The notes: generated by a model from the letters alone, not told the origin. 64,000 nucleotides of DNA from a virus (IMGVR_UViG_3300032295_003840:32001-96000), one strand, 5' to 3'. Positions 7,490 to 16,051 are shown, counted from the first letter of the stretch. Numbers and translations are program-made.

Positions 7490-8163
7490 TGCGCTGGTTA
7501 GTCGTACTGTGCCTGGTGATGTCCTGCCAGGCACAGGCCCTGACTGCACGCAGCTGGTTGATTACCGATACTGACTTAAATGTGCAGTCTGGTCATAACT
7601 ACCGTGAACTGCGCAGCATTGCCAGTCTGACCAAGCTACTAACTGTCATGGTCTCCATAGACGATGGCACTGCCAGACCCGAGCTGGTTAAACTGGCCAT
7701 GGTGAACAGCAGCAATTCAGCAGCCACGCAGCTCTGTAAAAACTACAGTCGTGGTTATCAGGCCTGCATACGAGCCATGAACGAAAAGGCCATGCGGTTG
7801 GATGCCTGGAATACCTATCTCTATGACTCTACAGGACTGGATCGACGCAACCGCAGCACAGCACAGGACATAGCACGCATTGTACTGGCGGCCAGAAACT
7901 ATGCACAGATAGTTGAGTCTAGTCATATACTCAGAGATCGTAAAAAGAAAATGGTGCTGAAGAATACCAACCCCTTGGTAGGCACCTTCAACACCACGGT
8001 TAGCAAGACAGGCTGGACCATGGCTGCTGGTGGTTGCATAGCAGTGCTCATAGAAAATCGCATCTATGTCCTGCTGGGCAGTCGCAACACCAAGACTCGA
8101 GTCACTGAACTTGCTCAATTGGTACGGGCAGAGGGAGTCGAACCCTCAAAACTCGGATTTTAA
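7489..8163 (+). CDS. Peptidase S11 (D-Ala-D-Ala carboxy/endopeptidase, PBP-like), secreted
   Basis: Signal peptide, SxxK (ASLTK), SxN (SSN) and KTG motifs. Confidence 0.85.
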   Translation: MRWLVVLCLVMSCQAQALTARSWLITDTDLNVQSGHNYRELRSIASLTKLLTVMVSIDDGTARPELVKLAMVNSSNSAATQLCKNYSRGYQACIRAMNEKAMRLDAWNTYLYDSTGLDRRNRSTAQDIARIVLAARNYAQIVESSHILRDRKKKMVLKNTNPLVGTFNTTVSKTGWTMAAGGCIAVLIENRIYVLLGSRNTKTRVTELAQLVRAEGVEPSKLGF

Positions 8164-8195
8164 GTCCGATACGTATACCATTCCGTCATGCCCGC
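8120..8195 (-). tRNA. tRNA-Leu(TAA), short variable loop
   Basis: Cloverleaf, anticodon arm tcgga-ctTAAaa-tccga, TTCGA T-loop, CCA end. Confidence 0.88.
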
Positions 8196-8199
8196 AATT

Positions 8200-8276
8200 T
8201 GGTCTCCGTAGCAGGGTTCGAACCTGCGACCCCCAGTCCCCCAGACTGGTGCGCTACCGGGCTGCGCTATACGGAG
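8200..8276 (-). tRNA. tRNA-Pro(GGG)
   Basis: ccagt-ctGGGgg-actgg, CCA end. Confidence 0.9.
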
Positions 8277-8846
8277 TTAATTCCAGTTGGTCGGAGCGCC
8301 CTGCAGGCCTGGATTGCCTCCCTCGGCGCGACTGCGTTTTAAAACTTCTTCCAGCAGTATAGGGCGGAAGTCGGTCTGTTCAACACAGACGCAGAAGTAA
8401 CGCAGATCAATTTCCTGATTGTCTAGACGCACACGCTTTTCATGCGTGTGTCCATGAATGTTCAGACCAAAGCGACCATGACTTTCAGGATGCAGGGGTA
8501 TGTGACTTAGTATGACACCTGCACCTGTCATGACATGATAGGCTCGGATGTCTCGAAAGTACTTGGTGTAGTCTTCGAGCTTGAAGATGTCGTGGTTGCC
8601 CTTGATCAGCACCTTGTCGCCGTTGAGACGATCCAGCGTGCTGAGTGCCCGACGATTGATCACCACGTCGCCCAGATGATAGACCTTGTCGCCAGGTCGT
8701 ACTGCGTCATTCCAGCGACGCACCATCTCATCATCCATTTCTTCGGGCGTGTCCCAGGGACGAAGCTTGGTACCATCCTGGCGTGTAAAACGGCATACGC
8801 CCAGATGACCAAAATGTGTATCACTTACTAACCATACTGCAGGCAT
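8277..8846 (-). CDS. Calcineurin-like metallophosphoesterase
   Basis: DTHFGH, LGD, GNHD, SH and HGHTH motifs. Start MPAVWL. Confidence 0.9.
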   Translation of the reverse strand: MPAVWLVSDTHFGHLGVCRFTRQDGTKLRPWDTPEEMDDEMVRRWNDAVRPGDKVYHLGDVVINRRALSTLDRLNGDKVLIKGNHDIFKLEDYTKYFRDIRAYHVMTGAGVILSHIPLHPESHGRFGLNIHGHTHEKRVRLDNQEIDLRYFCVCVEQTDFRPILLEEVLKRSRAEGGNPGLQGAPTNWN

Positions 8847-8865
8847 TTTATACTCCTGTTGATTG

Positions 8866-9804
8866 TCAAGGTGCTTCGCCGAATCTGGGTCGATCCAGCA
8901 ACAGATCAGTTGTTGGATTCCAGACACCGGATATGTTCCAGTCTGTGCTGACAGCACCAACTGGTAGTCGACCTGTGCTGAGGTTCACCATGGCGCTGGT
9001 CATGGTATCGCGATTAGCAAAGTTTAAATGGAAACTGGCCGGCCCGCGTCGATACTTGGTTATGTCGAATCTCTTGGCCACCCAACGCCCACCAATATAT
9101 TCTCCAAATACTTCAGGTCCCAGTATGACATCGTCCAGCATGACATGATCGGCGACGCGCATGTCGGCATAGGGTGTTGACCCATAGATGCCTATGTAAT
9201 TGGCGAAAGTAGGGTTGTTCATATATCCATTGTTGCCCAGCGTTGGCTGTGTGTTGACGTTTAAATTGGTCTGACGTTCTCCATTGACCCACAGACGTAC
9301 ACGATCAGTAATGGCGGCATTGTTGATGTCCGCAGTTAAATGTACATTGTGCCATTGATTCAGGGGCCAGGCCTTGTTGGTAAGTATTCTCCAACGAAAC
9401 ACCGACGACACATAGGCATAGGCATCAATGGTGCCAGTGGTAGTAAAACCAATGTTGTCATAGTTACCAGATGAATTGTAGGCTGCCATGAAGTAGTTGT
9501 TGCCGACAAAACTCAGTTGCTTGACCCAGACATTGATGGTATAGGTCTGTGCATTGGCACCTGCAGGACACAAACGCACCAGATGCTGACTGGCCCGGGC
9601 CGCTGTGAACTGTATGCTGGTCGGTGGACGATAGCTGGCTTGACCATCAAAGCTGTTGAAACTCACAGGGCTGGTATCGCCAGGTAATCGATCCAGTGTG
9701 TCTAAAACTCTGGGATCACCCAGAGACACAGGTCCAGCACCCAGAGCCAGCTCGTTGCGCAGATCGTCGAAGCTGTACTGCTGTCCAGGTTTATTTAATG
9801 CCAC
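8866..9804 (-). CDS. LamG/concanavalin-like lectin domain virion protein
   Basis: YTINVWVK, WHNVHL and RLWVNG beta-sandwich motifs. Probable GTG start at 9804. Confidence 0.65.
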   Translation of the reverse strand: MALNKPGQQYSFDDLRNELALGAGPVSLGDPRVLDTLDRLPGDTSPVSFNSFDGQASYRPPTSIQFTAARASQHLVRLCPAGANAQTYTINVWVKQLSFVGNNYFMAAYNSSGNYDNIGFTTTGTIDAYAYVSSVFRWRILTNKAWPLNQWHNVHLTADINNAAITDRVRLWVNGERQTNLNVNTQPTLGNNGYMNNPTFANYIGIYGSTPYADMRVADHVMLDDVILGPEVFGEYIGGRWVAKRFDITKYRRGPASFHLNFANRDTMTSAMVNLSTGRLPVGAVSTDWNISGVWNPTTDLLLDRPRFGEAP

Positions 9805-10315
9805 GACGTAACTCCTGCACCTGTTGATCCAGTTCCTGTATGGCAGCAATCAGCAGAGGCACCAGACGTTCGTAGCGCACAGTAAGGTACGCTGGATCCA
9901 CGGGTGCGGGTGCTACTGCCTCGGGCAGTTGTTGCTGCACCTGCTGAGCACTGACACCTACTTCGCGTACTGCAGGATCATAGCCCAGCCCAGCTGCGGT
10001 CTCGTTGGCATGATAGTAAAATGCCGACAGTGCACGCACACGCTGCAGAGCGTCTTCGATGCCGCCTAACTGTGTCTTGAGACGTTCATCAGAATAGTAG
10101 GCTGTGATGTTCTTCGTGGCCAGTATCTCACCAGGCACGCCGATGTGATCAGTACCAACACTCAGACTATTCAGAAACACCTGAGGATCATTGCTGGTGG
10201 GTATGGCAGTGCGCACCTGTTGCTGCTGAATTCTGGGCGCAATGGCCGAACCCGCGGCTGGCACTGTTGACTGATAGCTTGGCTGAAACTGTTTATTGCT
10301 GGTTGTATTGGGCAT
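9791..10315 (-). CDS. Short tail-fibre protein with an intramolecular chaperone (peptidase S74) domain
   Basis: YYSDERLK, VGVSAQ and YERLVPLLIAAIQEL coiled coil. Confidence 0.8.
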   Translation of the reverse strand: MPNTTSNKQFQPSYQSTVPAAGSAIAPRIQQQQVRTAIPTSNDPQVFLNSLSVGTDHIGVPGEILATKNITAYYSDERLKTQLGGIEDALQRVRALSAFYYHANETAAGLGYDPAVREVGVSAQQVQQQLPEAVAPAPVDPAYLTVRYERLVPLLIAAIQELDQQVQELRRGIK

Positions 10316-10340
10316 GGCTTACTCCTGACAGATTATCAGG

Positions 10341-10348
10341 TATTTATC
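10341..10348 (-). promoter_or_regulatory. Putative late promoter
   Basis: GATAAATA about 25 nt upstream of the ATG at 10315, which has an AGGAG RBS. Confidence 0.5.
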
Positions 10349-10424
10349 TGGCGCGGCTGGCAGGAATCGAACCCACATCGGACGCTTTAGAAGAGCGTTG
10401 CCTTATCCATTAGACCACAGCCGC
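10349..10424 (-). tRNA. tRNA-Arg(TCT)
   Basis: acgct-ctTCTaa-agcgt, CCA end. Confidence 0.9.
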
Positions 10425-10429
10425 GTTGT

Positions 10430-10834
10430 TCATCGAGTCAGTTCGCCCAGAGCTCGATATCCCTTGTAGGTGGGATGCACACCGTCGGCACTGATGTTGG
10501 ATTCTGGTCTGAGAATAATGATGTCAGTGAACTCAGTGGCAACCTTGGTCACAGCTTCTACCTGCTTGGGCTTGAGACGAGCGCTGGGCAGAATCCAAAA
10601 AACTCGATCTGCCTTGGCATTGGCTCGAAGTTTCCTAACATTGGCTTCGGTGTCCACACCCAGGTCATTGGCACCCAGACTGATGATCAGAGTACGTGCT
10701 GGTTTCAGTTTGTGCAGATGCAGCTGATTCCAATTTGCAGAGTTGATGCCACTCTTGGCAATGCTCTGACATTCAGTGCGGACCTGACTTACTCCTACGG
10801 CGATGCTATCGCCTACGATTAGACATTCTATCAT
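10430..10834 (-). CDS. SGNH/GDSL hydrolase
   Basis: GDSI, SG, GAND and DGVHP blocks. Confidence 0.85.
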   Translation of the reverse strand: MIECLIVGDSIAVGVSQVRTECQSIAKSGINSANWNQLHLHKLKPARTLIISLGANDLGVDTEANVRKLRANAKADRVFWILPSARLKPKQVEAVTKVATEFTDIIILRPESNISADGVHPTYKGYRALGELTR

Positions 10835-11304
10835 GCTACTCTCAATCCTTTGAATCGATCCGCAGCATAGCTGGCAGCAAATGCTCGGGGTTTAACCATG
10901 GGCACGACGTTGCAGGTGCCGCGAATGTAGCCAACAGCTTCGTTGATTACACAGCTGGAACCATGAAGCTCGTCAGGGTTGATGTCCAGATGTACTTCGA
11001 CCCGACGATCCTCCAGCACGTCATGCAGCTTTTGATACAGTTCAGCAATCTTGTAGACTTCATTCATGAGCCGCATGCGCGGACGAGCCTTTTTCTGATC
11101 CCAGTCACGCTCACGGCTTACTTCGCCAAAAATCTTGCAGCCATTGTTGCCGTTGATGTGCACTACAATGACCATGATGTAGTCTGCGTACCAGTCATTG
11201 CCAATCTTGATGCGCTCACTGTCGCCACCGATGTAGATCTTGGTGTCGGGAGTCTGTGCTTCAATGAAGCCTCGTACTTGTTCAATGTCAATAACTGGTC
11301 GCAT
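10831..11304 (-). CDS. RNase H-like YkuK/DUF458 family protein
   Basis: IYIGGDS, RLMNEV, EVHLDIN and ASYAAD motifs. Confidence 0.8.
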   Translation of the reverse strand: MRPVIDIEQVRGFIEAQTPDTKIYIGGDSERIKIGNDWYADYIMVIVVHINGNNGCKIFGEVSRERDWDQKKARPRMRLMNEVYKIAELYQKLHDVLEDRRVEVHLDINPDELHGSSCVINEAVGYIRGTCNVVPMVKPRAFAASYAADRFKGLRVA

Positions 11305-11320
11305 TTTACCACCTTTAATT

Positions 11321-11394
11321 TGGCATCCCGCTAGGGACTCGAACCCCAACCAACGGTTTTGGAGACCGCTATGCTGCCATTACACCAGCGAGAT
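11321..11394 (-). tRNA. tRNA-Trp(CCA)
   Basis: gcggt-ctCCAaa-accgt, CCA end. Confidence 0.9.
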
Positions 11395-11397
11395 ATT

Positions 11398-11601
11398 TTA
11401 CTTGATCAACTGTGTTTCCTCATTGTACCTGGTCTTGCGGTCCTCGGCCTCCAGAGCCGACAACACACAATCTTCAGTGCTGAGTATATCTTGAAAATCT
11501 GCAGGTCTTTTTTTCTTGAAAATGCTGTCCCAGTTATTGCTGAATGTTTCGGCATCTACACTCAGAGGCCTGGGACGACTTCCTTTACCACCATCACTCA
11601 T
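11398..11601 (-). CDS. Small hypothetical protein (GGKGSRPRP type)
   Basis: AGGAGG RBS, MSDGGKGSRPRP. Confidence 0.65.
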   Translation of the reverse strand: MSDGGKGSRPRPLSVDAETFSNNWDSIFKKKRPADFQDILSTEDCVLSALEAEDRKTRYNEETQLIK

Positions 11602-11628
11602 TGTATTACCTCCTGACAACAATGTCAA
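11600..11628 (-). promoter_or_regulatory. Sigma70-type promoter inside the tRNA array
   Basis: TTGACA-17 nt-TACAAT. Confidence 0.65.
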
Positions 11629-11636
11629 GTTATATA

Positions 11637-11712
11637 TGGTGCACCCTCCAGGGATCGAACCTGGTTCATCGGTTCTTCAAACCGCTGCTATGACCACATC
11701 AGCTAAAGGTGC
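11637..11712 (-). tRNA. tRNA-Phe(GAA)
   Basis: Anticodon loop ttGAAga, CCA end. Confidence 0.88.
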
Positions 11713-11713
11713 C

Positions 11714-11789
11714 TGGGGAGTTGTATGAGGATTGAACTCATACTATCTCGGTCACAGCGAGATGTGCAGACCACTACACTAACAACTCC
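11714..11789 (-). tRNA. tRNA-His(GTG)
   Basis: tctcg-ctGTGac-cgaga, G-1:C73 pair. Confidence 0.9.
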
Positions 11790-11795
11790 ACGGAC

Positions 11796-11869
11796 TGGTC
11801 TCGGTGGAGGGAATCGAACCCCCGCCGCATGCTCCCAAAGCACGCATGATGCCATTTCACTACACCGAG
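11796..11869 (-). tRNA. tRNA-Pro(TGG)
   Basis: Loop ttTGGga, CCA end. Confidence 0.88.
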
Positions 11870-11873
11870 TATC

Positions 11874-11948
11874 TGGAGCGGGTGACAGGGATCGAACCTG
11901 CGACGAACAGCTTGGAAGGCTGACACTCTACCACTGAGTTACACCCGC
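11874..11948 (-). tRNA. tRNA-Gly(TCC)
   Basis: GCGGG start, loop ctTCCaa, TCCA end. Confidence 0.92.
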
Positions 11949-11954
11949 ATTGTT

Positions 11955-12030
11955 TGGTGGGCCCACTAGGATTTGAACCTAGACTCAACGGATTATGAGT
12001 CCGCTGCTTTAACCATTAAGCTATAGGCCC
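11955..12030 (-). tRNA. tRNA(CAT), probably Ile2 (lysidine type)
   Basis: Loop ctCATaa with a GGGCC acceptor typical of Ile2. Confidence 0.8.
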
Positions 12031-12034
12031 TGAC

Positions 12035-12110
12035 TGGTGCTGCCAATGAGATTCGAACTCATGACCTCTGCCTTACCAAGGCAGCGCTCTACCGCTAGAG
12101 CTATGACAGC
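12035..12110 (-). tRNA. tRNA-Thr(GGT)
   Basis: ctgcc-ttGGTaa-ggcag. Confidence 0.9.
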
Positions 12111-12111
12111 C

Positions 12112-12186
12112 TGGTGCATCGTGAGAGGATTGAACTCCCGACCTTCGCCTTGTAAGGGCGCAGCTCTACCGCTGAGCTAACGATGC
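12112..12186 (-). tRNA. tRNA-Val(TAC)
   Basis: Loop ctTACaa, CCA end. Confidence 0.88.
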
Positions 12187-12191
12187 ATAAC

Positions 12192-12266
12192 TGGTGCCCC
12201 TTGAAGGAATCGAACCCACACACCCGGACTACAAAACCGGACCTCTACCATTAAGGATAAAAGGGC
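12192..12266 (-). tRNA. tRNA-Thr(TGT)
   Basis: Loop ttTGTag, GCC start, CCA end. Confidence 0.85.
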
Positions 12267-12267
12267 T

Positions 12268-12343
12268 TGGTGGTGATGGAGGGAATCGAGCCCCCGACCC
12301 TCTGCGTATGAAGCAGGTGCTCTACCAACTGAGCTACATCACC
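12268..12343 (-). tRNA. tRNA-Met(CAT), elongator
   Basis: Loop ttCATac, CCA end. Confidence 0.85.
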
Positions 12344-12347
12344 TGAT

Positions 12348-12421
12348 TGGTGCGGGCGGAGAGAATCGAACTCTCAACTAAACGTTGGCAACGTCTGATT
12401 TTACCATTAAACTACGCACGC
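12348..12421 (-). tRNA. tRNA-Gly(GCC)
   Basis: Loop ttGCCaa, CCA end. Confidence 0.88.
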
Positions 12422-12426
12422 ATGTC

Positions 12427-12502
12427 TGGCTGCCAAGGTAGGGATCGAACCTACGACCAATTGATTAACAGTCAACTGCTACTACCACTGAGCTACTTGG
12501 CA
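12427..12502 (-). tRNA. tRNA-Asn(GTT)
   Basis: Loop ctGTTaa, GCCA end. Confidence 0.9.
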
Positions 12503-12505
12503 ATA

Positions 12506-12742
12506 TTACTTGTTGGATACACAGATATCGCCTTTGAACAAATAGACATTGCTGTCTACTCTAGCCTGTTCAAAGAGCTGGTTGTCTACGCAGATATAGG
12601 GATCTTTGTAGTTGTTGAACCAATAGTATGCACCAAACCCCAGTCCTGCCAGAATCAGCAGTATGGGTATGTATTTGATATACTGGACAATGACTGGCAT
12701 TGAACCCAGTATCTGTGGCAGGAATTTTAGAAATTCTTTCAT
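12506..12742 (-). CDS. Small membrane protein
   Basis: MKEFLKFL..., TM IPILLILAGLGFGAYYW. Confidence 0.65.
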   Translation of the reverse strand: MKEFLKFLPQILGSMPVIVQYIKYIPILLILAGLGFGAYYWFNNYKDPYICVDNQLFEQARVDSNVYLFKGDICVSNK

Positions 12743-12753
12743 GCCACTATTTA

Positions 12754-12845
12754 TGGCGGTGAAGGTGGGATTCGAACCCACGGATCAACTTTCGTCAATC
12801 GACGGTTTAGCAAACCGCTGCCTTCGGCCACTCAGCCACTTCACC
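12754..12845 (-). tRNA. tRNA-Ser(GCT)
   Basis: Loop ttGCTaa, long variable arm, GCCA end. Confidence 0.92.
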
Positions 12846-12851
12846 TATAAT

Positions 12852-12928
12852 TGGTTGCGGTGTCTTGGATTCGAACCAAGGATCTTCGGCTTATGAGGCC
12901 GACGGGATGACCACTTCCCCAACCCGCA
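12852..12928 (-). tRNA. tRNA(CAT), initiator-like (fMet)
   Basis: TGCGGG...CCGCAACCA ends, loop ctCATaa. Confidence 0.8.
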
Positions 12929-12930
12929 AT

Positions 12931-13005
12931 TGGTGCACCAGAAAGGAATCGAACCTTAGGTCTATCGATTATCAATCGATTGCTCTACCATTGAGCTACT
13001 GGTGC
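12931..13005 (-). tRNA. tRNA-Ile(GAT)
   Basis: atcga-ttGATaa-tcgat. Confidence 0.9.
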
Positions 13006-13007
13006 CG

Positions 13008-13202
13008 CTAGGCTAACTGATCCACATTCATGCCCTTGGCATGGTCTTTCAGCACACCCTGTGTAGTATATAGTGTTACTGCATAGCTATAACGTTCAAC
13101 CTGAGTAACATCATTGCCTTTGTCATAGTCAAAGGTTGTTCTTTTTTCTATGGTGCGAAGGGCTCCATGCACACCATAATAGGTCGCTGTCTGTATCTCC
13201 AT
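13008..13202 (-). CDS. Small hypothetical protein
   Basis: AAGGAG RBS, start MEIQTATY. The longer ORF in the track overlaps tRNA-Asp. Confidence 0.65.
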   Translation of the reverse strand: MEIQTATYYGVHGALRTIEKRTTFDYDKGNDVTQVERYSYAVTLYTTQGVLKDHAKGMNVDQLA

Positions 13203-13212
13203 GTTTCTCCTT

Positions 13213-13287
13213 TGGCGGTCCCAAGGGGTAACGATCCCCTTCTTACGGCGTGACAGGCCGTCGTGCGTCCATGAACACTTTGGAACC
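13213..13287 (-). tRNA. tRNA-Asp(GTC)
   Basis: Loop ctGTCac, atypical T-loop (ATCGTTA), GCCA end. Confidence 0.85.
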
Positions 13288-13405
13288 TTAGAAGAGTCTT
13301 CTGCACTATTTGCTATGCTCAACGGAGTGTCCTCGAGGTTTTACCGTCTGTGTACATAGTTACTCAGGCATGATCAAGCCCATGGCTTACAAAAGACTCA
13401 TCTAA
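13288..13405 (-). ncRNA. Candidate structured ncRNA closed by a 13-bp terminal stem
   Basis: ttagatgagtctt ... aagactcttctaa pair with one mismatch; abuts tRNA-Asp. Confidence 0.5.
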
Positions 13406-13598
13406 GGTTGCTTGGGCTACTTGATTTCCAGTCATAGCCCCCAAGCTGAGTTGTTACCCTGTCCATCATTATATTGGTCATTTCCACGAATAATGAAACG
13501 CTGCTATGTTGTCTGCTTACGTATGCGCTGACGGTGCCATAGCCACCGGGACTTTATCGTTACCACACGCCAATTTCAGGAAATTGGTAACCGGATTC
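13406..13598 (-). ncRNA. Candidate manA-like structured RNA
   Basis: Non-coding, several stems (gttacca/tggtaac, ccaattt/aaattgg, gcttggg/cccaagc), directly after a promoter. The resemblance to the manA motif is from memory. Confidence 0.55.
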
Positions 13599-13601
13599 TT
13601 C

Positions 13602-13629
13602 ATTGTAGCACCTTGATGCTAGATGTCAA
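13602..13629 (-). promoter_or_regulatory. Sigma70-type promoter with an extended -10 and a palindrome over the -35
   Basis: TTGACA-16 nt-TACAAT with TGc upstream of the -10; CTTGA-N9-TCAAG. Confidence 0.7.
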
Positions 13630-13636
13630 GCATTTT

Positions 13637-13711
13637 TGGTGGACCGTCAGAGAATCGAACTCTGACCTCTGCGGTGCAAACGCAGCGTGCTCCCATTATC
13701 ACTAACAGCCC
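13637..13711 (-). tRNA. tRNA-Ala(TGC)
   Basis: Loop ttTGCac, G3:U70 pair. Confidence 0.92.
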
Positions 13712-13716
13712 AAAAA

Positions 13717-13791
13717 TGGCCGGTCCGGAGAGATTCGAACTCCCGACAGCTGGTTTCGAAGACCAGAACTCTTCCGCTGAGCTACGGACCG
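13717..13791 (-). tRNA. tRNA-Arg(TCG)
   Basis: ctggt-ctTCGaa-accag. Confidence 0.9.
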
Positions 13792-13796
13792 ATGCT

Positions 13797-13871
13797 TGGC
13801 AGGGGGTATAGGGATCGAACCTATGCATGGCGGGATCAAAACCCGCTGCCTTACCTCTTGGCGAACCCCCA
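13797..13871 (-). tRNA. tRNA-Gln(TTG)
   Basis: gcggg-ttTTGat-cccgc. Confidence 0.9.
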
Positions 13872-13878
13872 ACTAACT

Positions 13879-13954
13879 TGGTGCCCCAGGGGAGATTCGA
13901 ACTCCCAGAATTTGGTTTCTAAGACCAACACGTATACCGTTCCGTCACCAGGGC
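13879..13954 (-). tRNA. tRNA-Leu(TAG), short variable loop
   Basis: ttggt-ctTAGaa-accaa, 76 nt. Confidence 0.88.
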
Positions 13955-13961
13955 AAAAACT

Positions 13962-14048
13962 TGGTGGGTGCTCTCCGACTCGAACAGAGAAGGCCTAAGA
14001 CAACGGATTTACAGTCCGCCCCCGATACCATTACGGGACTAAGCACCC
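13962..14048 (-). tRNA. tRNA-Tyr(GTA)
   Basis: Loop ctGTAaa, long variable arm. Confidence 0.9.
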
Positions 14049-14055
14049 TACAACT

Positions 14056-14131
14056 TGGAAGTTGGAGTGAGACTCGAACTCACATTGACGCAGATTTGCA
14101 GTCTGCCGCGTAGCCTTTCCGCCATCCAACC
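14056..14131 (-). tRNA. tRNA-Cys(GCA)
   Basis: gcaga-ctGCAaa-tctgc, U73. Confidence 0.9.
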
Positions 14132-14283
14132 ATATAGAAACACACTAATGAACCAGCCTGACGCAGCCGTACGCTTGGCAGATCGTTTCCAATCTGTTTA
14201 TCGCTTTTCTCGGTACTCTGTATGTTCAGGATTCCGCAGTCCTCAGTACAATTGCTTGCAAGGGCAATCAATGTGTTTTTATA
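14132..14283 (-). ncRNA. Candidate structured ncRNA filling the Lys-Cys tRNA spacer
   Basis: Terminal stem tataaaaacacattga / ttagtgtgtttctata; internal cagattg-GAAA-cgatctg hairpin. Confidence 0.55.
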
Positions 14284-14358
14284 TGGTAGGGGTAGTAGGG
14301 ATCGAACCTACGGCCAATGGATTAAAAGTCCACTGCTCTTCCTCTGAGCTATACCCCC
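14284..14358 (-). tRNA. tRNA-Lys(TTT)
   Basis: Loop ctTTTaa, CCA end. Confidence 0.9.
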
Positions 14359-14360
14359 AA

Positions 14361-14435
14361 TGGTACACCGTAGGAGAATCGAACTCCTCTTTACGCCTTG
14401 AAAGGGCGTCGTCCTAACCGATAGACGAACGGTGC
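14361..14435 (-). tRNA. tRNA-Glu(TTC)
   Basis: acgcc-ctTTCaa-ggcgt. Confidence 0.9.
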
Positions 14436-14480
14436 GTATAACCTGCAAATTTTTAAAGATCAACTACTACAAGAAACTCT

Positions 14481-14509
14481 ATTGTAGCACCTTGACGCAC
14501 AACGTCAAG
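14481..14509 (-). promoter_or_regulatory. Sigma70-type promoter with an extended -10 and a palindrome over the -35
   Basis: TTGACG-16 nt-TACAAT; perfect CTTGACG-N5-CGTCAAG inverted repeat. Confidence 0.7.
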
Positions 14510-14559
14510 CTTTTTTTCAAATAACCCTACGTCGTGTAAGGTTAATATACTGCTAATCC

Positions 14560-14651
14560 TGGCGGAGGGCGGAGGAGTCGAACCCCATCCACTTTCGCAG
14601 AACCTGGTTTTCAAGGCCAGTCGCAGGACCATCCCCGCTGCATCACCCTCC
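14560..14651 (-). tRNA. tRNA-Ser(TGA), enlarged D-arm
   Basis: Loop ctTGAaa, long variable arm, GCCA end. Confidence 0.85.
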
Positions 14652-14659
14652 AAGTACAT

Positions 14660-14693
14660 AAACAAAAACCCCGAGCCTTTTGGGTCTCGGGGT
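14660..14693 (-). terminator. Intrinsic terminator (attenuator) immediately 5' of the first tRNA
   Basis: ACCCCGAG-acccaaaagg-CTCGGGGT followed by TTTTGTTT. Confidence 0.8.
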
Positions 14694-14716
14694 CTTGGTT
14701 TAGCTACCTGCTCTAG

Positions 14717-14833
14717 TTACGCTATACCCGACCCCCGACTATTATCCCATGCGCCTGTTGCAAAGCGGTACTCTGGCTGCATGGTGCATCCATGAATACT
14801 GGGCTTCAGCGATGAGGATATGAGGTGTTGCAC
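14717..14833 (-). CDS. Putative attenuator leader peptide (38 aa) MQHLISSSLKPSIHGCTMQPEYRFATGAWDNSRGSGIA
   Basis: AGGAG RBS 5 nt before GTG. Codons 2-31 use 29 different codons. The 3' end carries TCGGGGGTC, complementary to the terminator 5' arm. Confidence 0.7.
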   Translation of the reverse strand: MQHLISSSLKPSIHGCTMQPEYRFATGAWDNSRGSGIA

Positions 14834-14861
14834 AACGACTCCTAGTTGATTAATTACTGCC

Positions 14862-14890
14862 ATGATATAGTATATATCTGTTCTTGTCAA
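14862..14890 (-). promoter_or_regulatory. Sigma70-type promoter for the leader and tRNA array
   Basis: TTGACA-17 nt-TATCAT. Confidence 0.7.
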
Positions 14891-14916
14891 GAAAAATCAG
14901 AACTTTTTAAAAAATT

Positions 14917-15135
14917 TTACCTAAATGTATACCAAAAACCAGTCATGTAGATGGCCAGTAACCCAGCATTGACTATGACCAGATTCAATTCACGAATGCG
15001 GATAGCCCAGAGCAGATACAGCAGGCTACCAGCATTGCATAAAAAGATGTTCATGGGGTCGATACGAAAGCTGGTGCATAAAGCTCCAGCAATCGTACAA
15101 ACCAGCGCAGTCCATTTCAGTATATTATTTAGCAT
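14917..15135 (-). CDS. Small multi-TM membrane protein
   Basis: MLNNILKW..., three hydrophobic segments. Confidence 0.65.
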   Translation of the reverse strand: MLNNILKWTALVCTIAGALCTSFRIDPMNIFLCNAGSLLYLLWAIRIRELNLVIVNAGLLAIYMTGFWYTFR

Positions 15136-15141
15136 ACTACC

Positions 15142-15170
15142 ATTATAGCACCTTGCTAGCCAGCTGTCAA
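15142..15170 (-). promoter_or_regulatory. Consensus sigma70 promoter
   Basis: TTGACA-17 nt-TATAAT with extended TG. The -10 lies about 6 nt from the ATG, so the mRNA may be leaderless. Confidence 0.75.
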
Positions 15171-15191
15171 GCACTGTTTTCATCAATGAAA

Positions 15192-15488
15192 TCAAGCAGT
15201 TAGCGTAGTGCTGGGCATGATGATGCCTGCGCCATAGACACGATCGTATTGAGTGCGCAGATCCTCGGCTGGATTGCTGGTCACCACAATCTTGTCATGC
15301 TTGACGGTAAACTCTTTGTCGGCACTGTAGGGAATCCACTGACTCAGGCCCACACTGGGTACTCCAGTTTCTGTGGGGCGAATATAGACAATCAGAGGAT
15401 TGCGAATCTGCACACCAACGTCACCACTGTCCACAATCTCGGCCAGTACATCTTCGCCTGTGACCAGACGCATTAATTTAATTTCCAT
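15192..15488 (-). CDS. Conserved T4-like hypothetical protein (Sm-like fold)
   Basis: MEIKLMRLVTGEDVLAE ... WIPYS; sits next to hsp20. Confidence 0.7.
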   Translation of the reverse strand: MEIKLMRLVTGEDVLAEIVDSGDVGVQIRNPLIVYIRPTETGVPSVGLSQWIPYSADKEFTVKHDKIVVTSNPAEDLRTQYDRVYGAGIIMPSTTLTA

Positions 15489-15529
15489 GATGACTCCAAG
15501 ATGCGGCGGGTTGCCCCGCCGCGGTTTAA

Positions 15530-16051
15530 TTACAGACTGGTTTCAATCTGTGTTTTTTCATTTTCAGTCAGCAGTTGTTTTTTTCTGCTGCCTTCCTTGA
15601 CTTCGATCTTCTTGGGCTTCTTGTGCTCGGGAATGATGCGTTCCAGAGCAATCTGCAGCATGCCGTTGAACAAGGCTGCATCCTGAATCTCAATCTGATC
15701 GTTGAGTGCGAATGTGCGGGTAAACGCACGATTGGCGATACCTTTGAAGACATAGTCGGCATTGTTGTCTTCTTTGGTGTTGCCACGCACTACGAGCTTG
15801 TCATCCACAAATTCAATCTCAATGTCCTGACGAGCAAAGCCTGCCACGGCCATTTCAATGACATAGGTGTTCTCACCGGTCTTGCGAATATTGTAGGGAG
15901 GATAGTTGGGAATATCCTTGGTCACATCATCGTGTAGCTTGGCCAGACGATTGAACTGTTCTTCAAAACCAACAAAGAATTTGTCAATGCCCTTGAACAT
16001 TTCTTCAGGGTGTATTTCGGTATTAAGTTTAAATGGTCTTGTTGTGATCAT
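15530..16051 (-). CDS. Small heat-shock protein Hsp20
   Basis: NYPPYNI, EMAVAGF, GIANRAFTRTF and NGML motifs. Confidence 0.93.
   Translation of the reverse strand: MITTRPFKLNTEIHPEEMFKGIDKFFVGFEEQFNRLAKLHDDVTKDIPNYPPYNIRKTGENTYVIEMAVAGFARQDIEIEFVDDKLVVRGNTKEDNNADYVFKGIANRAFTRTFALNDQIEIQDAALFNGMLQIALERIIPEHKKPKKIEVKEGSRKKQLLTENEKTQIETSL

Follow-up and report, generated by a model that had tools for sequence, protein, structure and literature searches.

A putative transcription attenuator whose leader samples nearly all amino acids, at the head of tRNA arrays in uncultured phages

Introduction

Transcription attenuation by a translated leader peptide is known for amino-acid biosynthesis, for a few synthetase genes and for drug-resistance genes. 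The enterobacterial leaders include multivalent ones, such as those of ilvGMEDA (Ile/Val/Leu) and thr (Thr/Ile), as well as trpL, hisL, leuL and pheL. Leader attenuators are also found at antibiotic-resistance genes of Firmicutes (bmrB-bmrCD, vmlR and ermK-type), where slowing of the ribosome on the leader ORF leads to formation of an antiterminator. We found no report of leader attenuation for tRNA genes or tRNA arrays, nor of a leader sampling all amino acids, in a literature search whose coverage left many subscription journals outside.

The DNA analysed here, referred to as the window, is a stretch of 64,000 nucleotides comprising bases 32001-96000 of a 166,912-bp IMG/VR virus record. A first-pass annotation of the window had proposed that a short ORF ahead of the phage tRNA genes belongs to a pan-codon attenuator. 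In the enterobacterial leaders, codons for one to three amino acids recur, whereas the phage leader contains approximately one or two of each of 19-20. Compared with described leader attenuators, the cassette thus shows codon enrichment in a variant form, with 19-20 kinds of amino acid and no repeated regulatory codons.

Results

Source genome and anatomy of the cassette

The genome encodes a DNA polymerase, a portal protein, a tail sheath protein and a gp46-like nuclease, a gene content that marks the phage as a T4-like myovirus. Judged by portal protein, the closest cultured phages are Methylophilales phage Melnitz and cyanomyoviruses (∼55% identity); the Melnitz phage publication holds nothing relevant to the leader cassette. 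ARAGORN detected a permuted tmRNA gene with the tag peptide ANDESYALAA in the same genome, outside the window (G000:C1:135902-136273, minus strand). This phage-borne rescue system for stalled ribosomes shares the genome with a putative stalling sensor. An Hsp20-type small heat-shock protein gene lies at 15530-16051 (minus strand; 28-37% identity to cyanomyovirus counterparts). The conserved neighbour upstream of the cassette encodes a 72-residue membrane protein (14917-15135, minus strand) with a weak DUF6552 match (23 bits, under the cut-off). The latter gene has its own promoter at 15142-15170 (12/12 consensus), and the 92-residue TTG-start ORF listed for it is probably too long.

The features of the cassette and of the tRNA genes behind it are as follows.

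14862-14890, minus strand: promoter P1, TTGACA-17-TATCAT (consensus scan, 11/12)
14839-14843, minus strand: Shine-Dalgarno sequence AGGAG, 5 nt ahead of the GTG start at 14833 (read directly)
14717-14833, minus strand: leader ORF, 38 codons from the GTG start at 14833 plus TAA at 14719-14717 (translated)
14721-14739, minus strand: antiterminator 5' strand (A), codons 32-38 to the stop codon (nascent fold, A:B covariation in the family)
14684-14704, minus strand: shared strand (B), the antiterminator 3' strand, of which 14684-14694 doubles as the terminator 5' arm (nascent fold)
14660-14696, minus strand: intrinsic terminator, 13-pair stem with one bulge, loop CAAAA and U-tract (folding, -25.4 to -29.5 kcal/mol)
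14564-14651, minus strand: long-arm tRNA-Ser(UGA), first gene past the terminator, anticodon loop CUUGAAA (Rfam tRNA-Sec model, BLAST)
14481-14508, minus strand: promoter P2, TTGACG-16-TACAAT (consensus scan; relatives have an equivalent promoter)
11321-14435, minus strand: main array of 24 tRNAs, including tRNA-Tyr(GUA) (ARAGORN, Rfam)
13966-14048, minus strand: long-arm tRNA-Tyr(GUA), missed by ARAGORN (Rfam tRNA-Sec model, 31 bits)
8120-10424: three distal tRNAs

Direct reading of the minus strand confirmed the proposed order of promoter, ribosome-binding site, GTG-started ORF, terminator and first tRNA. The terminator hairpin occupies ∼14696-14665 and its U-tract reaches 14660. The distance from the terminator to the first tRNA is 8 bases, as had been claimed, if counted from 14660 to 14651, and 12 nt if counted from the end of the T5 run (14664). 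The hairpin structure is conserved, with compensatory changes among relatives. P1 shows no sequence difference in relatives L002 and L003, and AGGAG is kept in L002, L003, L126 and L034. The spacer of P1 contains GATATATAC between the -35 and -10 boxes (14866-14874, minus strand); it is retained by the very distant L093, L126, L038, L037, L046 and L025, and may represent a second promoter type or a regulator site.

The cassette is the sole one of its kind in the 167-kb genome. With the first start codon used for each ORF, the window leader is the only genomic ORF of 28-60 residues that has at least 19 kinds of amino acid and a terminator behind it. Gaps elsewhere in the window's array contain small protein genes and no second leader/terminator cassette.

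ARAGORN missed tRNA-Ser(UGA), which scored 36 bits with the Rfam tRNA-Sec model, under threshold; BLAST homologues of 14564-14651 include annotated tRNA-Ser. This type of tRNA-Ser is also found in >118 IMG/VR contigs, in Pseudomonas phage PHB09 and in mycobacteriophages. Together with the 24 tRNAs of the main array and the three distal ones, it brings the total of the phage to 28 tRNAs, covering 20/20 amino acids.

Homologous cassettes in uncultured phages

We scanned IMG/VR with the tRNA-Ser sequence and with the leader motif CAGYCNGAGTATCGCAC, followed by iterated nhmmer searches. The searches gave 58 unique homologous cassettes, all in uncultured phage contigs and each at the head of a tRNA array. 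A profile of the distant 'QPEYRT' clade alone, with the window's clade left out, matched the window at E = 1.3e-5, which indicates that the cassettes are homologous. The closest relatives are L002 and L003 (∼85% identical), which were also the sole matches in an exact 20-mer scan; both retain the ORF, and their indels are in-frame.

All 58 cassettes contain a homologous ORF of 31-60 codons with start signals. Depending on the clade, the start signal is a Shine-Dalgarno sequence, a AGAAAGAAA tract or a leaderless-type ATG located 6 nt past the -10 box. A sigma-70-like promoter was detected within 90 nt upstream in 50 of 57 unique cassettes, and a terminator follows the stop codon at a distance of 23-44 nt in all 58. 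The first-pass annotation had named homologous loci that keep the terminator without the ORF as evidence against its proposal; a short translatable ORF is kept in 58/58 cassettes.

BLAST of the window's or a relative's cassette against GenBank phages (50,697 records) gave no homologue, and the family is known from uncultured contigs only. Two leads were set aside. Pseudomonas phage PHB09 was ruled out as a cassette carrier, the common part being the tRNA-Ser only. The upstream membrane-protein gene was tried as an anchor and led to 19 loci, just 2 of which have the cassette. Rfam cmscan of 7500-16000 at E ≤ 1 returned tRNAs and chance hits only, with no leader, riboswitch or T-box match; the models for the Trp, His, Leu, Thr and Phe leaders gave no match in this interval. 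Five leaders searched against Pfam (E ≤ 1) matched no family except for a 12.7-bit chance hit. A profile search of a set of 5.8 billion proteins retrieved 4 related called ORFs, for which the sole source name is 'hypothetical protein'; the number is this small because gene callers skip such ORFs.

Mutually exclusive antiterminator and terminator

We examined the folding of the window transcript with and without the leader end blocked. In the nascent transcript, 14739-14721 (A) pairs with 14704-14684 (B) to form the antiterminator (-24.7 kcal/mol), and the partner of A is B rather than the 5' part of the leader. The claimed complementarity between the end of the leader and the terminator was borne out, since TCGGGGGTC pairs with the terminator 5' arm. 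The complete transcript prefers the terminator (-29.5 kcal/mol), and only the terminator is left once the bases under a ribosome at the stop codon are masked. Because thermodynamic stability favours the window terminator over the antiterminator, any switching must be under kinetic control; in this model, the position of the ribosome would determine the choice of fold.

The consensus fold of six relatives consists of the terminator and local stems only. It contains no conserved anti-antiterminator (the trp-type 1:2 pairing), and the 5' half of the leader shows no structure that is kept among relatives. With no conserved 1:2 pairing, untranslated RNA should read through and not super-attenuate. 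The trp/his/thr-type geometry claimed in the first-pass annotation therefore stands for the leader ORF, the terminator and the mutually exclusive antiterminator, and not for a conserved anti-antiterminator.

The A:B pairing was then evaluated in the family. We compared 20 representatives whose terminator flanks are dissimilar. The mean energy of the A:B duplex was -19.2 kcal/mol for cognate strands and -14.2 kcal/mol for non-cognate ones, and the cognate mean was matched by 0 of 20,000 permutations (p < 5e-5). The A:B and terminator pairings are mutually exclusive in 20/20 representatives. Relative to the first base of the stop codon, the 3' end of A ranges from -18 to +12 nt in these representatives, and strand B falls, by geometry, beyond a ribosome footprint placed at the stop codon. 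Covariation was tested on an 11-pair helix in a MAFFT alignment of 36 cassettes. Paired cells made up 83% of the helix, a value that none of 500 shuffles attained (shuffled, 75%), and 25 cells were changed on both sides vs. 11.1 ± 2.7 in shuffles (0 of 500). Sliding the helix partners by 1-3 columns reduced the pairing to 28-57%. Both tests agree with the covariation between antiterminator and terminator that the first-pass annotation had suggested looking for in related phages. The best upstream duplex averages -18.8 kcal/mol at the cassettes vs. -11.5 kcal/mol at 165 other terminators of the same loci (Mann-Whitney p = 2.5e-16). A strong upstream complement to the 5' arm is also present at ∼14.5% of these 165 control terminators, part of which may be further unrecognised attenuators.

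The whole 204-nt transcript of the window folds far better than shuffles (z = -5.1). Such stability would suit an untranslated small RNA of ∼190 nt, or an insulator of transcription, in which the ORF is incidental, as would the high nucleotide conservation among close relatives, where the substitutions in codons 1-31 are non-synonymous. The long hairpin across the window ORF that accounts for this score was, however, rejected as a conserved feature, being absent beyond the closest relatives, and there is no Rfam family at E ≤ 1. Moreover, the ORF and its start signals are kept despite indels in all cassettes, whereas the other two frames across the same spans contain 87 and 164 stops, and the amino-acid completeness described below is meaningful only with translation. 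We regard a non-coding role as very improbable.

Amino-acid completeness of the leader

Codons 2-31 of the window leader contain 29 distinct codons and 19 amino acids, as previously claimed, and 29 distinct codons in 30 positions has P < 1e-5 under a null of random windows taken from the phage's own long reading frames. Over codons 2-38, 33 of 37 codons are distinct, compared with 24.6 ± 2.4 in the null (P < 1e-5). The entire ORF includes 19 of the 20 amino acids, Val being the missing one, and 34 distinct codons. It samples 24 of the 27 tRNA species of the phage (null 16.3, P = 7e-5). The share of leader codons readable by phage tRNAs was 0.92 vs. 0.85 in ordinary genes, which is not significant (P = 0.19), and a codon-level matching of the leader to the phage anticodons was dropped.

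The first-pass annotation had also called for a comparison of leader diversity with controls in related phages. Among 50 unique peptides of 31-60 residues, 31 contain 20 kinds of amino acid, 16 contain 19 and three contain 18, so that 47 of 50 hold 19-20 kinds. Windows of 31-38 residues drawn from long ORFs at these loci served as controls; they contain a mean of 15-16 kinds and reach all 20 at P = 0.0004-0.005. Highly dissimilar leaders (L071, L052, L057, L093, L046 and L034) are equally complete, and completeness is therefore not merely inherited along with conserved sequence. These comparisons indicate that the leaders have been selected for amino-acid completeness.

The part of the leader upstream of A has, at the median, 19 kinds of amino acid within 28 codons. 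The amino acids usually lacking there are Val and Gly, because both are encoded within A (GGG UUU UGU GUA). An exact 'roster' rule, by which an amino acid missing from the leader would be one whose tRNA is missing, was considered and rejected: the window leader has no Val and the L037 clade leaders have no Cys, yet in both cases the tRNA for the missing amino acid is present in the array.

In a rival reading, the cassette is a translation-coupled terminator switch with a less specific input than the supply of individual aminoacyl-tRNAs, namely overall ribosome activity or the coupling of transcription and translation, as affected for example by host shut-off, ribosome-targeting defence or toxins, or growth state, with completeness being secondary. 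Given a three-part design that lacks an anti-antiterminator, late or failed arrival of the ribosome at A from any cause would result in read-through, the codon choice of the leader is not tuned to the phage anticodons, and leader attenuators that respond to any stall have been described for antibiotic-resistance genes. This explanation leaves two observations unaccounted for: the presence of 19-20 kinds of amino acid within ∼30-40 codons in 47 of 50 divergent leaders, and the tie of the cassette to complete tRNA sets. On balance we consider it unlikely.

tRNA arrays and promoters downstream of the cassette

The search with the leader motif is unbiased towards tRNAs. In all cassettes found by the leader motif only and having enough downstream sequence, a tRNA-Gln comes next, within ∼16-105 nt. 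Most arrays with at least 5 kb of sequence contain 23-32 tRNAs for 19-20 amino acids; the exceptions are L187 (8 tRNAs) and L034 (16 tRNAs, 14 amino acids).

Internal promoters had been placed at 14509, 13629 and 11628, and the consensus scan finds them at 14508, 13629 and 11628. Between 14890 and 14508, the scan detected no promoter-like site besides P1, and tRNA-Ser(UGA), the only gene between the window terminator and the next promoter, therefore apparently depends on read-through. P2 probably feeds the rest of the array independently of P1. Most relatives have a near-consensus promoter (TTGACA or TTGCCA, 17 nt, TACAAT) between the terminator and the first tRNA, so the array in those phages does not depend on read-through, and the switch could only add to a basal supply. 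No promoter-like site was detected in this interval in the window's clade, the L174 clade, L063 and L031, and their first tRNA apparently depends on read-through. The expectation that the cassette may control only part of the array's output is borne out by the second promoter of most relatives and by the single tRNA ahead of P2 in the window.

The motif CTTTAAAAATTT (∼14447-14458, minus strand) is located 15-30 nt ahead of the first tRNA past P2. It is also present in most related loci and conserved across distant relatives; it may act in the tRNA precursor, as a processing signal or as a leader signal. In one clade (L052, L112, L074, L087 and L088), the interval from the leader terminator to the first tRNA contains a conserved segment, GGGAAACGAGGTCCCG ... 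CAAACGGGCGGAC, ∼20-200 nt past the terminator; it looks like a structured RNA and matches no Rfam family at threshold. L088 further carries a GOLLD RNA (192.6 bits; L088:9451-9914, plus strand) with an embedded tRNA, ∼300 nt upstream of its cassette (10217-10417), and a permuted tmRNA further upstream of the cassette (L088:3476-3926, plus strand).

The strong promoter past the terminator in most relatives also bears on a quite different reading, in which the cassette is a stand-alone micro-gene with its own promoter and an ordinary terminator, the product is the peptide of 31-60 residues (for example, a factor acting on tRNA, the ribosome or host defence), and the tRNA array relies on promoters of its own. 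The leaders share a peptide motif, HKP...Q[P/S]EYR[T/F]...W...G[F/V], which a pure codon sampler would not need; some changes inside it are synonymous (CCA/CCG, TAC/TAT), and C-terminal tails of the EG.GY[A/C] type reappear in different codons. Across the family, 29% of single-base codon differences are synonymous, compared with an expectation of 22% and with 18-26% in the two alternative frames, which points to weak selection on the peptide sequence itself, and there is no Pfam family match. A strand over the stop codon that competes and co-varies with the terminator would be superfluous if the terminator were an ordinary one, and in several clades the first tRNA directly follows the terminator with no promoter-like site before it. 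To our knowledge, compositional completeness is not a property of functional micro-proteins. A micro-gene appears quite unlikely as an explanation of the cassette. The weak synonymous enrichment also means that translation of the leader ORF is inferred mostly from its composition and start signals.

Discussion

We conclude that the cassette is probably a ribosome-mediated transcription attenuator that heads the tRNA array and has a leader sampling essentially every amino acid. The pan-codon reading of the first-pass annotation thus gains support from the conserved ORF, the A:B covariation, the completeness of the leaders and the constant linkage to tRNA arrays.

In the proposed mechanism, RNA synthesis would start at P1 and the 38-codon leader would be translated during transcription. 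A ribosome delayed on any codon ahead of A, whether by a full stall or by slowing, would allow A:B to form first, the terminator would be blocked, and RNA polymerase would continue into tRNA-Ser(UGA) and the array. A ribosome that keeps pace would reach the stop codon and cover A; B would then pair with the terminator 3' arm (C) and transcription would end. With 19 of 20 amino acids (24 of 27 tRNA species) in the sensing part, the slowest aminoacyl-tRNA of almost any kind would set the output, and a complete tRNA set would be the output that matches an all-amino-acid input. The build-up of phage tRNAs would shut the switch again, as a feedback. Host shut-off, starvation, anticodon nucleases and tRNA-degrading defence are candidate triggers, and the physiological signal may be scarcity of charged tRNA or a tRNA-targeting defence. 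In its widest form, the 'pangram' leader of phages with complete tRNA sets would be a universal sensor of decoding speed, opening the phage's own tRNA array when any tRNA or amino acid becomes limiting and closing it upon recovery; we put this forward tentatively, as a serious possibility that falls short of an expectation.

If true, phage tRNA arrays would be an on-demand supply and not simply constitutive supplements. This would bear on the debated reason for tRNA carriage by phages, be it codon compensation, host shut-off or escape from tRNA-targeting defence. Demand-driven control of tRNA genes in viruses would then be a general principle that is as yet undescribed. A natural element that senses global decoding capacity in so compact a form would also have practical value as a tool.

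Comparison with known attenuation systems

T-box riboswitches resemble the mechanism proposed for the cassette in coupling the supply of charged tRNA to a terminator/antiterminator choice upstream of translation-related genes. A T-box binds one uncharged tRNA directly and needs no ORF, whereas the phage cassette lacks specifier and T-box motifs and has an ORF instead.

The resistance-gene attenuators of Firmicutes share with the proposed mechanism the use of general translation speed as the input, received through a short leader ORF. They respond to drugs and regulate efflux or ribosome-protection genes, and their leaders, unlike that of the phage cassette, are compositionally incomplete and unlinked to tRNA genes or phages.

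The enterobacterial amino-acid leaders are similar to the cassette in layout, with a promoter-proximal short ORF, an intrinsic terminator and a mutually exclusive antiterminator. The logic would also be the same, in that the ribosome position selects the fold and an upstream stall results in read-through. The cassette is phage-encoded and has no sequence or Rfam relationship to these leaders. Untranslated trp-type leaders super-attenuate via the 1:2 pairing, whereas the phage cassette, with none conserved, should read through. Finally, the enterobacterial leaders regulate biosynthetic enzymes, whereas the phage cassette stands at the head of tRNA genes.
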